A stretch of DNA of 64,000 nucleotides from a virus (taxonomy: Duplodnaviria; Caudoviricetes): positions 32,001-96,000 of the IMG/VR virus record IMGVR_UViG_3300031414_000007. The stretch is one strand, 5' to 3'. This document shows, piece after piece, positions 5,756 to 63,567 of this stretch (the stretch's first letter is position 1; every line of letters starts with the position of its first letter). The position numbers and the translations under genes were made by a program. Below the pieces are notes generated by a model, which worked only from the letters and a program-made list of their open reading frames with translations, ran no database searches and was not told where the DNA came from.

Positions 5756-6091
5756 ATGAACTACGATCCAAAGAAAGATTTCCACCCGTTTCAATATCTG
5801 GGCGCACCTAAAGTCCCGCACACAGGCTTCTTAGGCAATACAGTGAACTTGGTTGAGAACGACGTAAACATCGGCAGCGATGAATGCACGTTCGAGTTCA
5901 CTGTAGCTCAGATGAACGCGATGGACAGAGGTACTGTTACGTTCAGGGCGAAAGACTCTGGCGGTGGTATCGACATTAAGAAATGCTCAGTCTCAGGTTT
6001 GAAAATGGTAATTAAGCTGGACAGAAGGGTGATCGAGTTCGGCAAAGTTCAAGTCGAATGGCAGACCACTCCTCGCCACTACTATTACTGA
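5756..6091 (+). CDS. hypothetical protein, possibly late/virion
   Basis: AGGAG RBS; preceded by UUCG hairpin and TAATTT motif. Confidence 0.7.
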   Translation: MNYDPKKDFHPFQYLGAPKVPHTGFLGNTVNLVENDVNIGSDECTFEFTVAQMNAMDRGTVTFRAKDSGGGIDIKKCSVSGLKMVIKLDRRVIEFGKVQVEWQTTPRHYYY

Positions 6092-31663: not shown

Positions 31664-32716
31664 TTACATCAAAAACCGTCGCTTTATCACCACAGCGTCG
31701 TAGGCATTCAATGTTGCAGCAGGCACTTCATTGGGATTTATGTCTGAGGCCGCATTGAAATCAACACCCGCTTTGGATAGAACAACGTACACTGGAGCGT
31801 CACGCTCGAATGCTATCGGCATCGCTCCCCACTTTAGTGCATAGGCAGGAGTATCGTCATGGGTGCCTTGTCCGAAGTATGCCCCGTCAGGCTCTGAGGC
31901 AGAACTGCCGAGAGAACCCGCTGAATACGACGTGGTGTAAGACCAGCCCCCACCGGAGAAGTAGTACGAGCCATAAGTTGATGAACTGAATGGTTGAAAC
32001 AGTCTCGGGAAGATCGTATCAGGGAAGGTACTCTGATTGTACGGAGAACCCGCATACAACGAACTCAGAGTCTGCACGTTAATCGTTACGGTGGCTATAT
32101 CGGCAGTTACATTCAACGCAGTGATTCCCACGTTTTGCAGATAAGAAGATCCTGTCCGTGTCCATCGCCCTATGCCACTACCCCCGCCTCCAGTGATAGT
32201 ACCTCCATCACTTGAAGTCACACTGGCAGATGTTTTAGGGACAGAGTAAAGAGACTTCGTAAACGCTGAGCCGTCGAATGCAGGCAGAACCATATCAGAA
32301 TAAGCGGGTACGCTAGGACTTCCGTTACCGTACGAATCCAGCAGACTGCCTGTACCTTCCTGAGCTGTACCGATGCCAGAGTCTAACGTACCTATAGCAT
32401 AGTAACGACGGAACATGTCAATAGCGCTGACAACGCGATTACCACCAGTCTGAGAAAACCCAGACTTACGGACAGAAGGCACGTAGTTATAGAATAGGCG
32501 ATTACCTTTCCAGCCAGCACCACGAACGCATTGCATTTCATTCTGAGCATTAACAAGAGCGCAGAAGGAGCGAGACTTATTGATCTTGTCAATCATCTCA
32601 GGATAAGACGACTTACTCGTTGGAGGCTCAACATCATCAGAGAAAAGGAACATGCGACGACGAGCCGTCTCAATCTTCTTCTCTAAGATTTGCGCTCCGT
32701 TTGAAATGAAAAGCAT
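31664..32716 (-). CDS. virion fibre-family paralog (long, divergent)
   Basis: MFLFSD..PP; LKWGAMPI...AGVDF. Confidence 0.6.
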   Translation of the reverse strand: MLFISNGAQILEKKIETARRRMFLFSDDVEPPTSKSSYPEMIDKINKSRSFCALVNAQNEMQCVRGAGWKGNRLFYNYVPSVRKSGFSQTGGNRVVSAIDMFRRYYAIGTLDSGIGTAQEGTGSLLDSYGNGSPSVPAYSDMVLPAFDGSAFTKSLYSVPKTSASVTSSDGGTITGGGGSGIGRWTRTGSSYLQNVGITALNVTADIATVTINVQTLSSLYAGSPYNQSTFPDTIFPRLFQPFSSSTYGSYYFSGGGWSYTTSYSAGSLGSSASEPDGAYFGQGTHDDTPAYALKWGAMPIAFERDAPVYVVLSKAGVDFNAASDINPNEVPAATLNAYDAVVIKRRFLM

Positions 32717-60176: not shown

Positions 60177-60466
60177 TAGCCAAATCTCACATTAGAACTA
60201 CCACTCGAAGCTGTGTCGCCGCAACTGTTAGCGTCACCAGCACGTTGCGCAGGCTTACCGTTGACACGCACACTAGAACTTGAAGTAGCTTTCCCGACAT
60301 GAGGAGGCTTCTTTGGTTTCCAGTGAGGACGATAACTATCGCCTTGACGAACACTCCCTTTTCCATTCACAAGCACGTTAGAAGATGCCTGAGCAGGGAC
60401 AACAGGAAAATAACCATTGTGTCCAGTAGACAGATCTGTGCCTAAACGAATAGCTTTCTGACCCAT
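60176..60466 (-). CDS. PAAR-repeat tail spike tip protein
   Basis: LSTGH...ASSNVLVNG...RQGD...H...VNGKPAQRAGD...CG...GSSNV. Confidence 0.9.
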   Translation of the reverse strand: MGQKAIRLGTDLSTGHNGYFPVVPAQASSNVLVNGKGSVRQGDSYRPHWKPKKPPHVGKATSSSSVRVNGKPAQRAGDANSCGDTASSGSSNVRFG

Positions 60467-60489
60467 GTTAATTCTCCTCTGTTAGGCAC

Positions 60490-60495
60490 AAATTA
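60490..60495 (-). promoter_or_regulatory. TAATTT late-promoter-like motif upstream of PAAR
   Basis: Same hexamer starts 28-41 nt upstream of several structural gene starts, usually just after a hairpin. Confidence 0.55.
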
Positions 60496-60511
60496 GCTTG
60501 TTATGCAGTAG

Positions 60512-60546
60512 AAACGAAAACGGGCAACCCGAAGGCCGCCCGTTTT
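60512..60546 (-). terminator. intrinsic terminator closing the large RNA
   Basis: GGGCGGCC-TTCG-GGTTGCCC-GTTTTCGTTT; G-U pairs valid only on - strand. Confidence 0.85.
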
Positions 60547-60576
60547 CTTTGCTTGGATTTGTGTCGCTTAACTCCC

Positions 60577-60735
60577 TCACACCCGAAGCGAGTGCTCGGT
60601 AGCCGAAGCCACTAAGCCGGAGTTAATGGCCGAGAGTGAAGCCGCACGGCGCGGCAACAGCATGTGACTCTCGGGACCAGATAGCAAGCGACCAAGCATC
60701 GCAATTGCTATCAACGACACGAAGAACAAAATCAT
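60577..60735 (-). CDS. 52-aa sORF with hydrophobic N-terminus inside the structured RNA
   Basis: AGGAG-caaac-ATG; MILFFVSLIAIAMLGRLLSGPESH...HSLRV. Confidence 0.45.
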   Translation of the reverse strand: MILFFVSLIAIAMLGRLLSGPESHMLLPRRAASLSAINSGLVASATEHSLRV

Positions 60736-61791
60736 GTTTGCTCCTGTGTCTCTACTGTAAGGTAAAACATTTGCAAATGTCGATCAAGTTACTTCAAGTT
60801 GCCCTTCGCCCAACTTCACTAGGGTTTCAACTCTCTTTCTCTCGTTACCGCCTGGGTTGCGGAGACCGCGCACAAGAACAACGCTTCAACGATACGTGGG
60901 CAGGAAGACACGTACCGTATTCACATCGCTCAAGCGAAGGAGGTTACCCATCGGTGATCTGCGGTGGTTAATACACTCTTTAACAATCGCTCTTGTTGTG
61001 CATTAGATCGTGGTAGGAACGCGATTGACCGCTAACAAGTCCTATACGATATTTCACTACCCGAGAATGGGTATCAGCTATGGCAGCACGTCAACAGCAG
61101 CGGGGCAGCGGACACACTCCATTAAGCATTGTTAAGGGCAATGCTCAACAGGCTGTGAACAGCTTTGACCAAATGCAGAGTCGCTCGTCGCCCGACTTCA
61201 CTTGAGTATCTCGTCTGCACTCTTTTACTCCCTGAATACCGTACAAGGAAGACGGCACCCATGAGGGTCTGCGGATGTTTATCACATTAAGACTCTAGCC
61301 AACTTAATCCCGTACGCAGTGTGTTGAGTCGTCCGCTGGATGACACACTACATACCCCCTCACGTTCGTGCATAAGTGGGATATAGCTGGTGGAAGGTTG
61401 TCATGAAGATTGCATCGCCTGGAGGCCTGCCGTTCTTCCCAATGCACACACGGTGAAAGGCATATGTGCATCAGGCAGCGTAGCTGCAAACTGCTATCCC
61501 GATAAGAGGGGCCACAACGTTGAGAGTACGTTCCGCCTGTCTTACGCGCCTAGAGGCAACTGCCGTGCCATGTCTGAAAAGAATGAAAAACGCTGGGCCT
61601 TGTGAGCGTCAGCAGCAGAGCAGCAGTCTATCGCGTGGGTGCTGGGGTTAATCCTCACGATTACAGAGCATCACACTCTAACCAGCTGGAGGCTTGCCTA
61701 CTGTGGAACGCAGCGACAAGTTTACAGTCAAACAACGTCCGCTAAGTACGCCATCTGACTGGGACAAGTTGATATTACTATCTGCAATTTT

Positions 61792-61803
61792 TATTTACAG
61801 ATT
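61792..61803 (-). promoter_or_regulatory. AATCTGTAAATA motif, copy 4 (putative promoter of the large RNA)
   Basis: Exact reverse-complement match directly after the stop codon of 61804-63567. Confidence 0.7.
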
Positions 61804-63567
61804 TTAGAACGCCTTACGCTCAATATTTGAATAAAGAGTATCGTAAGGTTCTGAGTACAGTTCAGGTCCGCGTTGTGCGCGAATCGTCACGTAGCCTGTG
61901 TGACGGTTGAACGCTGTGATTTCGACAGTCGGCTGTTTAGGCTTGATAGTCGCATAAATCGGAGCATTCAACGTTGGCTCGTCTGTCTGAATCTTATTTA
62001 CAGATTGCAGTGCAGCGCCAGAGATAGCAGGCAGATTAAAACGCAGTTCAGCACGTTTCTGGCCGAATGCCGCGCGAATCATACCGTTCTCCAACTCTAC
62101 ACCGTTCTGCTTGAGATATGCAGCGATGCGACGTCCGATACCAGTAAGCTGATCGCGAGTGCGCGGGTCAAACGTGCCTTCGAAGCTGATTGCTTCTGCT
62201 GGCTGACGTACAGACAAGTGCAGGCCCGTGTTGAAATAGCCTTCGGTAAGCAGACGCAGGATTTCTTTCACGACCTCTTTGGTGTTCGTCTTGATAGCAG
62301 CGATACGCAGCTCAGGAACGTCCACTTTAATCGGGTCACGAAGCTCGGTCTGGTTGTCCATATAGCCGAGTGAGATATGCTTCGCATTGGCATACGTGTG
62401 TTGCAGCACACCAGTCGCGCGAATCAATACAGAGCCACCTTTTGCGAGGTCATAAAGTTCATCGCTGGTGGTTGTGCTGAACAGGTAATAGTCCGTAGGT
62501 ACGGCCATGCGATTAACAGCTTCAATCGCTTTGGTCTGAGCTTCTTTGACAGTTGAGCCAAAGACTACGCGACTACGATTCGGCTGGGCAGCAGATACAG
62601 GGAAAAACGCACCATAGACAACGCTAACGTTTTTCTTAATCGGACGCTCAGACTGAATCTTCTTACCGCCAGGCAGAGACGGTAGCTTAACGCCCACCAG
62701 CTTACCTTTGACGATAGCTTTGTTCTCTTTTACCGGCTTGAGGCTGTCAATGAGTTTCGCCAGATCAGCACCGCTAAGAATCTTCTCCAGCGGAACAGCG
62801 AGGTTCTGCGGCAGATAGTGTTTCTTGCGGAACATATAGATAACGGTGTCTTTCTTGATCTGCACTGGCGTAGCCATGTTGCGACCAACAACACCGACCG
62901 GCTGGAACGTGTTTGCTTTGTCATCACCGATAGAGCCGAACTGCTTAGTGAACTCAGTCTGGCCGATGATGTTAGCAGCACGTAAATGGCCACGAATGAT
63001 GAACACGATTTTCGGGTCATCTTTCATGCGCAACTCGTAGCGGTCACGGTTCAGATAAACCATGCTGTACTTGTCGCCTTTCTCCAGCTCCAGATCGTAC
63101 TCGTCGTTAGCGTCATCAACAACGACTTTCTTACCTACGTAGGTACCGTAAGTGCGCGGGCCAGCAGACTCAGAAGCAATCTGCAATGCTTTGCCACTGT
63201 TAGACAGAGAGGCAGCGAAGTCCATAACAGCGGGCATCAGGTCTAAAGACGATGCTACAGCGTATGGCTTGCGCTTCTCACCAAGATGCAAATGAACAGC
63301 GCTACTGCTGGACATGAATACGGTTGTGCCTACATCTTCGTGTGTACCAGCGAAGTGCATACCGCTAATACGTTCGATGATGTTTGCGTTGAGCGATTGG
63401 AAGTTTACTTCGCTGCCTGCGGTGAAGTCATAAATTTCACCGTTACGCCACGCATAGGCAACGTTGTTTGAGCTTAGACCCACGAACGCATCACCCAACT
63501 GACGCACGGTCAATGGCATGATGCTCAGGTCACGAATAATCGAGGACTGCTTTTGAATGAGGTTCAT
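61804..63567 (-). CDS. hypothetical protein, likely virion-associated
   Basis: 587-aa ORF, AGGGA RBS, in structural block. Confidence 0.78.
   Translation of the reverse strand: MNLIQKQSSIIRDLSIMPLTVRQLGDAFVGLSSNNVAYAWRNGEIYDFTAGSEVNFQSLNANIIERISGMHFAGTHEDVGTTVFMSSSSAVHLHLGEKRKPYAVASSLDLMPAVMDFAASLSNSGKALQIASESAGPRTYGTYVGKKVVVDDANDEYDLELEKGDKYSMVYLNRDRYELRMKDDPKIVFIIRGHLRAANIIGQTEFTKQFGSIGDDKANTFQPVGVVGRNMATPVQIKKDTVIYMFRKKHYLPQNLAVPLEKILSGADLAKLIDSLKPVKENKAIVKGKLVGVKLPSLPGGKKIQSERPIKKNVSVVYGAFFPVSAAQPNRSRVVFGSTVKEAQTKAIEAVNRMAVPTDYYLFSTTTSDELYDLAKGGSVLIRATGVLQHTYANAKHISLGYMDNQTELRDPIKVDVPELRIAAIKTNTKEVVKEILRLLTEGYFNTGLHLSVRQPAEAISFEGTFDPRTRDQLTGIGRRIAAYLKQNGVELENGMIRAAFGQKRAELRFNLPAISGAALQSVNKIQTDEPTLNAPIYATIKPKQPTVEITAFNRHTGYVTIRAQRGPELYSEPYDTLYSNIERKAF

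Follow-up and report, generated by a model that had tools for sequence, protein, structure and literature searches.

Does the small open reading frame (sORF) near the end of a long gene-free gap in a jumbo phage genome encode a peptide whose synthesis is gated by the folding of its own message, or is it the by-product of a structured RNA? The question is raised by a stretch of 64,000 nucleotides (nt) of the IMG/VR virus record IMGVR_UViG_3300031414_000007 (positions 32,001 to 96,000 of that record; hereafter the window), for which an earlier note, made from the letters alone, had proposed a membrane peptide gated by mutually exclusive RNA pairings. By comparing sequences from eight lineages we found that the fold and its covariation, the competition between two helices, the open frame and the hydrophobic N-terminus are all conserved. 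The reading that we favour, with somewhat more confidence than doubt, is that the unit would be a message that gates its own translation and encodes a small single-pass membrane peptide. The original observation is real, and much better supported than any reading of a single sequence could show; its interpretation is partly supported, being right in kind, with details that are wrong or unproven. The features at the core of the argument are:

60577-60735, minus strand: sORF of 52 codons plus UGA, with a membrane-like segment at residues 1-19 and a variable C-terminal tail.
60741-60750, minus strand: 5' arm, consisting of GACAC (60750-60746), which mimics the 3' strand of helix P1, and then the Shine-Dalgarno (SD) sequence AGGAG (60745-60741).
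60716-60750, minus strand: hairpin sequestering SD and AUG (state A), with a basal GACAC/GUGUC stem, an inner AGGAGCAAA/UUUGUUCUU stem and the AUG in the loop.
60713-60720, minus strand: P1 5' strand GUGUCGUU, codons 6-8, a shared segment taken up either by the 5' arm or by the P1 3' strand; 8/8 P1 pairs have changed on both sides.
60561-60568, minus strand: P1 3' strand AGCGACAC, pairing with 60720-60713.

The window comes from an Alexandravirus-type Erwinia jumbo phage, being 99.4% identical in this region to Erwinia phage pEa_SNUABM_30 (Alexandravirus), and the carrier is a lytic jumbo phage with a 260-kb double-stranded DNA (dsDNA) genome and, we presume, ordinary lysis genes. The sORF region is matched by 45 phage records. 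The homologous region was taken from 13 annotated relatives and then from IMG/VR and metagenome loci, while more distant phages (Yoloswag, pEa_SNUABM_5 (SNU5), Dickeya JA11/JA29 and Yersinia fHe-Yen9-02, the Yersinia phage below) were found by way of a neighbouring 587-amino-acid (aa) protein; a metagenome scan with the gene of this neighbour gave one new locus only. Two alignments were used: A1, a plain MAFFT alignment of 14 sequences, and A6, in which 20 sequences from eight lineages were fitted to a covariance model built from the domain core. Weak model matches at L019:588-745 and L002:597-738 were treated as spurious and excluded from the final alignment.

All the elements that the earlier note had placed around the start of the sORF were located as claimed (GACAC at 60750-60746, AGGAG at 60745-60741, AUG at 60735-60733, GUGUC at 60720-60716 and CGACAC at 60566-60561), as was the 52-aa frame at 60735-60577. 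The hairpin said to bury the SD and start codon is also borne out: locally it reaches -15.5 to -16.9 kcal/mol (z -3.0 to -3.7) and is equalled by no shuffle, the state A hairpin by itself (60716-60750) giving -14.1 kcal/mol. It recurs in 11 lineage representatives of differing sequence, at -10 to -16 kcal/mol (z -1.9 to -4.2), and in all 11 the 5' arm contains the SD (or its equivalent), the loop or stem contains the start codon, and the basal pairs use that lineage's own P1 5' strand. The terminal pair of the 5' arm has changed on both sides in three lineages. Read directly from the lineage folds, the 5' arm and the segment that it shares with P1 are:

Most Alexandraviruses: GACAC / GUGUC.
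SNU3: CGACAA / UUGUCG.
SNU34: CGACGA / UUGUCG.
Y3: GGCAU / AUGUC.
L038: GACAU / AUGUC.
Yersinia phage: GACAA / UUGUU.
Yoloswag: AC-AGCA / UGCU-GU.
SNU5: AGUGAU / GUCGCU.
JA11: GACGU / AUGUC.

Since the 5' arm resembles the P1 3' strand in each lineage, one segment has two co-evolving partners, and since every lineage builds the hairpin base on its own P1 5' strand, covariation in this competition is three-way. For the window, state A was computed at -82.1 kcal/mol and state B, in which P1 is formed, at -83.3 kcal/mol, with probabilities of 0.73 for P1 and 0.26 for the basal stem when the pseudoknot described below is not counted; across 18 sequences the difference between the states ranges from -3.6 to +4.1 kcal/mol. 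In progressively lengthened transcripts the full state A hairpin is present until position 60561 has been made. The inner 9-bp stem AGGAGCAAA/UUUGUUCUU (-6.5 kcal/mol) is more than 90% formed in both states, so that P1 displaces just the 5-bp basal stem and takes the hairpin from -14.1 to -6.5 kcal/mol. The earlier proposal that the rival pairing frees the SD thus holds for the displacement of the basal stem but not for the release of the SD, which is loosened rather than freed. Comparison nonetheless supports an initiation region that would be gated by two mutually exclusive, co-varying helices.

The rival pairing GUGUCG/CGACAC turned out to be the closing helix P1 (GUGUCGUU/AGCGACAC) of a strongly co-varying, pseudoknotted RNA domain of 170 nt (60720-60551, minus strand), which covers nearly the whole body of the sORF from codon 6 to the stop. 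Its other parts are:

60680-60712, minus strand: hairpin A, whose loop GCUUGG (60697-60692) pairs with the tail CCAAGC.
60630-60674, minus strand: hairpin B, with an 8-bp base and a 5-bp tip, swapped wholesale for other paired sequence in SNU35/SNU2, Y3 and SNU34.
60569-60625, minus strand: three-way junction with two hairpins, one closed by a tetraloop (variously UUCG, GAAA, GAAG or UAAA) and the other, J4, including the stop codon.
60551-60556, minus strand: pseudoknot 3' strand CCAAGC, invariant in the Alexandra-like clade.

In A1, 94% of cells are paired and 24/60 pairs have changed on both sides, compared with 34-43% paired when partners are slid; none of 500 shuffles was as good. The 20 sequences of A6, an alignment that leans towards structure, have 91% of cells paired (slid partners 35-49%), with 41/52 pairs compensatory, including all eight of P1. 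Even the stop codon in J4 takes part, its change from UGA to UAA being compensated by a C to U change in the partner strand, and the 251-nt stretch up to the terminator folds with z -6.9. The covariance model matched SNU5 at E 5.6e-9, Yoloswag at 9.5e-8 and the Yersinia phage at 9e-7, and, once filters were off, JA11/JA29 at about 0.03, each of these distant matches being full length, directly under a small ORF and present in one copy per genome. Hairpin A loop and tail co-vary between genera: the Alexandra-like lineages and the Yersinia phage have UGCUUGG:CCAAGC as their pseudoknot, Yoloswag has UGCUC:GAGCA, SNU5 has UUGCUC:GAGCGA and JA11/JA29 have UGGCAAG:CUUGCC. A second helix that the earlier note had added to the rival pairing, GAUUU/AAAUC, did not survive comparison (81% paired, no compensatory changes, one pair broken in 6/14 sequences), and its C belongs to the better-supported pseudoknot strand CCAAGC. 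Rfam 15 gave no match at gathering score in the whole window and only chance-level matches (E > 1) in 60300-62000; the unit represents a new structural RNA family that Rfam lacks. In Yoloswag (L028:5857-5884 and 6005-6040) there are two copies of AUGCUCGU, of which one lies at the start codon and the other forms the P1 5' strand, and GAGCAU occurs twice 3' of the ORF, a duplication that could allow a second long-range pairing capturing the start codon.

A fold this elaborate might do more than gate. The closing P1 of a conserved, pseudoknotted, multi-helix domain competes here with an SD-sequestering helix at near-isoenergetic states, which is the architecture of translational ON riboswitches such as the adenine riboswitch of Vibrio vulnificus add, in which P1 competes with the SD-sequestering helix. 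The domain could then be a riboswitch-like sensor within the ORF, or a dual-function RNA, in which a ligand, a protein or its own partner stabilises P1 and the pseudoknot and so opens the gate, translation and RNA activity being mutually exclusive. The invariant loops and junctions, the pseudoknot, the tetraloops and a degree of conservation far beyond the needs of a simple SD hairpin would fit, as do the co-varying fold with its closing P1 and the P1 versus SD-helix competition. Yet no Rfam family matches, there is no evidence of a ligand pocket, and hok-type messages too are elaborately folded while sensing nothing. Unlike add, moreover, the phage domain spans codon 6 to the stop rather than an untranslated leader, and to our knowledge no riboswitch aptamer lies inside an ORF rather than in a leader. 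We therefore regard sensing as distinctly improbable.

If the RNA is so constrained, is the peptide real? Coding was judged from stop codons, phase and hydrophobicity, pN/pS having been set aside because it came to 0.56 in frame 0 and 0.54 in frame +1 over the N-terminus and to about 0.9 over the remainder; a phase-blind test of stop-free coverage proved meaningless, most of the gap being open in some frame, and was redone in phase-consistent form. The frame of the start codon contains no stop over the domain in 20/20 homologous sequences from the eight lineages, and it remained intact each of the three independent times that hairpin B was replaced. Frames +1 and +2 hold 0-6 stops each per sequence (0 only in JA29 frame +2), at about 18 distinct positions per frame. 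Across the 1.3-kb gap, on both strands, the sORF is the sole phase-consistent stop-free stretch of at least 45 codons in all sequences. The AUG-started frame over the domain runs for 43-65 codons (JA11/JA29 reaching 50 codons from an upstream GUG), giving a peptide of 47-53 aa in most of the eight lineages, 64 in SNU5 and 63 in the Yersinia phage. An AGGAG-type SD stands 4-6 nt from the AUG in six lineages, and the frame has already been annotated as a coding sequence in SNU17, SNU35, SNU2, Yoloswag, SNU5 and fHe-Yen9-02.

The signal is concentrated at the N-terminus. Codons 1 to about 19 are read in a single phase in all lineages and are membrane-like throughout, the best 19-residue Kyte-Doolittle window (KD19) scoring 1.9-2.7 in frame in every lineage and below 1.6 in the other frames. 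This hydrophobic frame is fixed despite about 44% nucleotide identity between the window and Yoloswag in these codons (counted by hand), and within codons 1-20 the variable columns number 13, 6 and 12 at the three codon positions, the second position being least variable. In the window (KD19 2.27) the earlier description of an 18-residue hydrophobic N-terminus stands as regards its membrane-like character but not as regards length, since the uncharged run is 15 residues followed by R16; some relatives have 19-21. Comparison thus supports a real, selected small ORF with a membrane-like N-terminus, and we read the open frame as maintained, the N-terminal membrane segment as selected as protein and the tail as set by the RNA. 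The product would be a single-pass membrane peptide, membrane entry being predicted from its sequence; candidate roles are toxin-like depolarisation, an accessory part in lysis or exclusion, and help with assembly. A peptide gene with protein-level constraint on its first 19 or so codons only, the remainder being constrained as RNA and read in a frame that differs by genus, would bear on how small ORFs originate on structured RNAs.

Several observations weigh against this reading, besides the leaning of A6 towards structure and the failure of N-terminal pN/pS to separate the frames. The last 32 codons have a pN/pS of 0.91 and no codon periodicity, and the C-terminal part is read in three phase combinations over the same RNA columns, according to lineage, so that most of the 'protein' is dictated by the RNA. 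Apparent motifs, AHVRGMW for one, amount to a one-frame reading of hairpin J4, the same hairpin that Alexandraviruses read as HSLRV-stop. The membrane-length segment of JA11/JA29 requires a GUG start, and SNU3 and SNU34 lack a well-spaced SD, having just a distant purine tract. Both states leave the initiation region structured, and P1 starts at +16, within the 30S footprint, so that translation may be very low. Pfam searches with six lineage representatives gave no match at E <= 1 except a spurious ETRAMP (0.36), PHROG gave no significant match to six peptide variants, and neither a word-index search nor an exhaustive profile search (1.84 billion representatives) found relatives of the peptide outside the phage clade.

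Such points suit the view that the domain is a structured RNA with no coding role, whether on its own or as the 3' domain of a kilobase RNA, and the ORF a by-product without useful translation. RNA-level constraint explains nearly all the sequence conservation, the C-terminal two thirds are neutral as protein with frames shifted between genera, the SD is missing or ill-spaced in SNU3, SNU34 and JA11, and the initiation region is sequestered in every case. A by-product, however, would hardly be expected to keep its start frame unbroken through three hairpin swaps and changes of frame while the other frames gather stops, to hold 19 N-terminal codons fixed and hydrophobic at such low nucleotide identity, or to carry a correctly spaced AGGAG in divergent genera, and we consider this explanation unlikely.

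The self-gating message that we prefer would work as follows. The peptide, of about 50 residues, would carry an N-terminal membrane segment with no charge ahead of it and basic residues behind. On the nascent RNA, the SD and AUG would first be locked in the local hairpin, whose basal stem takes up 5 nt from the beginning of the P1 5' strand (state A, -14 kcal/mol). Once a further 150 nt or so had been made, the P1 3' strand would emerge along with the pseudoknot tail, and P1 could then displace the basal stem, leaving a weak 9-bp stem of A-U and G-U pairs over the SD (state B, -6.5 kcal/mol). Initiating ribosomes would unzip the whole domain; indeed, the stop codon is in no lineage more than 16 nt ahead of the end of P1 or 37 nt beyond it, so that a translating ribosome must open the domain entirely. 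State B may be more translatable than state A, and the gate may delay or throttle synthesis. If so, this would be a comparison-backed bistable RNA gate on a small membrane-peptide gene of lytic jumbo phages, with three interacting strands co-varying over eight lineages, in a field, that of small phage membrane peptides and their control, which is poorly known; the unit is compact (about 235 nt) and makes clear mutational predictions.

A broader alternative to the self-gating message, to which we give only minor weight, is that the domain has a function as RNA and that a peptide gene has been overprinted on it, the RNA being either a sensor of a phage or host factor or a dual-function module in the manner of RNAIII. 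Were this the case, ribosome passage and RNA function would exclude one another, the formation of P1 would signal to the translation start that the RNA is complete or its partner bound, and the whole would amount to a riboswitch-like device within a coding sequence. In Staphylococcus aureus RNAIII the hld (delta-haemolysin) ORF is embedded in the RNA, and its translation is reported to trail transcription through pairing with the 3' part. RNAIII/hld is the nearest dual-function analogy, in that an ORF for a small peptide of membrane-active type sits in a large multi-hairpin RNA, but there is no homology of sequence or structure, and in four genera the phage unit occurs without a large RNA.

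Known messages for small membrane peptides offer closer parallels to a self-gating unit. In hok and aapA the interaction between 5' and 3' ends is the inhibitory state and is relieved by 3' trimming. The phage unit resembles hok/sok of plasmid R1 and aapA/IsoA of Helicobacter pylori in its hydrophobic peptide of about 50 aa, in a message folded over its whole length with covariation, and in a long-range helix involving the 3' end; but P1, a pairing of codons 6-8 with the 3' end, acts against the SD hairpin by displacing part of it, the opposite sign to the fbi/tac pairings of hok, and the carrier is a lytic jumbo phage rather than a plasmid or chromosome. Membership of the hok type is accordingly not supported: the six lineage representatives searched against Pfam do not match Hok/Gef (PF01848), no mok-like overlapping leader ORF exists, no other phase-consistent frame being conserved in the gap on either strand, and the long-range helix weakens the SD hairpin. 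What is shared is a hydrophobic peptide, here below 60 aa in most lineages, whose SD is sequestered by in-ORF anti-SD hairpins during transcription, as in the metastable hairpins of aapA3, where the anti-SD sequence also lies inside the ORF (PMC6733600). By analogy, then, the unit may function most like type I toxin messages, outside the hok family.

Whether it belongs to a classical type I toxin-antitoxin pair of the hok/aapA kind, with an antisense RNA still to be seen, is another matter. The elaborate, co-varying fold and the in-ORF anti-SD around a peptide of this size would be in keeping with such a pair, but neither Hok/Gef nor any other toxin family is matched, the long-range helix loosens the SD instead of sequestering it, and the unit is present in one copy per genome of a lytic phage. 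Nor did the opposite strand over 60550-60800 yield a sigma-70-like site, phage promoter motif or terminator that could serve an antisense RNA, promoter types of unknown form lying outside the search. We judge a classical pair to be quite improbable, more so even than a sensor.

A further comparison is with the lysis peptides MS2 L and phiX174 E, which overlap protein genes or genome RNA in small phages. As there, a small membrane peptide appears to be overprinted on otherwise constrained sequence, with access set by RNA structure and protein-level constraint on the membrane segment only; unlike there, the underlying sequence is a dedicated RNA domain and the phage has a dsDNA genome of 260 kb.

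The earlier note had further supposed that the peptide is controlled by a large RNA of which the unit is the 3' end:

60736-61791, minus strand: kilobase structured RNA, found in the Alexandra-like clade only.

This RNA exists, and RNAalifold of the upstream 1.07 kb gave 236 pairs, 116 of them compensatory (22-42 in slid controls); 95% of cells are paired, compared with 31-43% in those controls. However, in Yoloswagvirus, Rivsvirus, Salmondvirus and the Yersinia phage no kilobase RNA lies upstream of the unit. Its place is taken by ordinary small genes in Yoloswag, SNU5, JA11/JA29 and the Yersinia phage, and tblastn found no remnants of the Yoloswag, SNU5 and JA11 small genes in the gap of the window. 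Yoloswag, JA11 and the Yersinia phage each have, 50-80 nt upstream of the start codon, the promoter motif described below or a variant of it, with a 5' stem-loop following. The unit thus occurs in four genera without the kilobase RNA, in three of them with a promoter-like motif of its own, and so is autonomous; the large RNA is not required and its supposed control of the peptide is not a conserved feature, even though in the window the unit is probably co-transcribed as the 3' end of a 1.27-kb RNA. Separating the two should aid the interpretation of the kilobase RNA. The latter has two near-identical hairpin loops (in GGCGACGAG and GGCGAAGGG contexts) and many invariant islands, and conserved islands are found also in the more distant IMG/VR contig L025. 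The weak match at L002:597-738 (plus strand; E 0.5, full length with respect to the sORF domain) lies inside the large RNA of pEa_SNUABM_1 and is probably due to chance, an internal duplication being also possible.

The genes here are on the minus strand, and the gap of 1337 nt separates the 587-aa gene (61804-63567) from the PAAR/baseplate genes (from 60466 down). The signals within it are:

61792-61803, minus strand: promoter-like motif AATCTGTAAATA, opening the 1.3-kb gap.
60767-60780, minus strand: palindromic 5' stem-loop ACAUUUGCAAAUGU, upstream of the gate (direct sequence reading).
60754-60783, minus strand: predicted sigma-70-like promoter match TCGACA-18-TACAGT, with 9/12 matches.
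60506-60547, minus strand: intrinsic terminator at the 3' end of the gap, a 14-bp UUCG hairpin with a U tract, its stem kept in homologs.

The terminator suggests one more explanation for the unit, that of a leader-peptide attenuator in which the position of the ribosome on the sORF decides termination at 60547-60516, before the PAAR/baseplate genes. The window does present what an attenuator would: a small ORF with alternative pairings, followed by an intrinsic terminator and by same-strand genes that have no recognisable promoter. Against this, the stop codon is 30 nt ahead of the terminator stem, and no complement to the 5' arm of the terminator was seen by reading, no formal search having been made. 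The terminator adjoins the unit in the Alexandra-like clade only, lying about 225-330 nt past the domain in JA11 and the Yersinia phage, and Yoloswag has extra sequence between the domain and the PAAR gene. Attenuation is in our view the least probable of the explanations considered, and very unlikely.

An internal promoter was considered and is doubtful. The sigma-70-like match at 60783-60754 is weak, a scan of the region giving 2 sites against 1.2 expected, and, as read from the alignment, it is not conserved in the Alexandra subgroup, SNU3 and SNU34. Its predicted start, at about 60747, falls inside GACAC, so that state A would be lost from such a transcript. In T4, ribosome-binding-site-sequestering hairpins occur on e, soc, 49 and I-TevI, and their 5' arm is missing from internally started transcripts. 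The phage unit resembles these in having an SD buried by an upstream arm inside which a start is predicted, but it differs in that the predicted promoter is unconserved and the competitor is a downstream helix rather than a choice of transcript. The stem-loop ACAUUUGCAAAUGU has symmetric variants UUCUUUGCAAAGAA in Y3 and AUAUUUGCAAAUAU in L034, and Yoloswag, JA11 and the Yersinia phage have analogous 5' hairpins downstream of their promoter motif.

The motif core AATCTGTAAA has 6 exact copies in the window and, with one mismatch allowed, 12 matches against 3.6 expected; the four plus-strand copies each lie 30-75 nt upstream of gene starts. Sites of the form AATCTGTAAA(T)A are at 6091, 11509, 14686 and 19092 on the plus strand and at 61803 and 62006 on the minus strand, one copy being within the 3' end of the 587-aa gene. 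Since the genes that follow at 30-75 nt include, among others, those for a ParB-like/methyltransferase and a nucleoside triphosphate (NTP) pyrophosphohydrolase, it may be that the motif is an early or middle rather than a late signal.

Short 'hypothetical proteins' are annotated in the structured-RNA gap of some records (L010:230-706, L003:313-456, L004:737-886 and L011:834-995, all on the minus strand). Such annotations occur on either strand and look like over-annotation, since they are never phase-conserved across relatives.

The terminator hairpin (window 60506-60560) has an A-rich 5' flank and a U-rich 3' flank, so that termination could be bidirectional. The PAAR/baseplate genes sit past this strong terminator. 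The spacer between the terminator and the PAAR start (60467-60511, minus strand), AACAAGCUAAUUUGUGCCUAACAGAGGAGA, is nearly invariant in the Alexandra-like clade and is not a recurrent motif within the window. In AD1, 2910A, SNU33, SNU3, a metagenome relative, Yoloswag and SNU5, a small basic gene lies between terminator and PAAR gene; it is missing from the window, where the 45-nt spacer takes its place. It encodes 39-42 aa with a shared motif like FVPAK-PKIP, and was located at L005:1677-1802, L006:1671-1799, L008:1670-1792, L034:3825-3944, L028:6286-6414 and L029:6589-6714.

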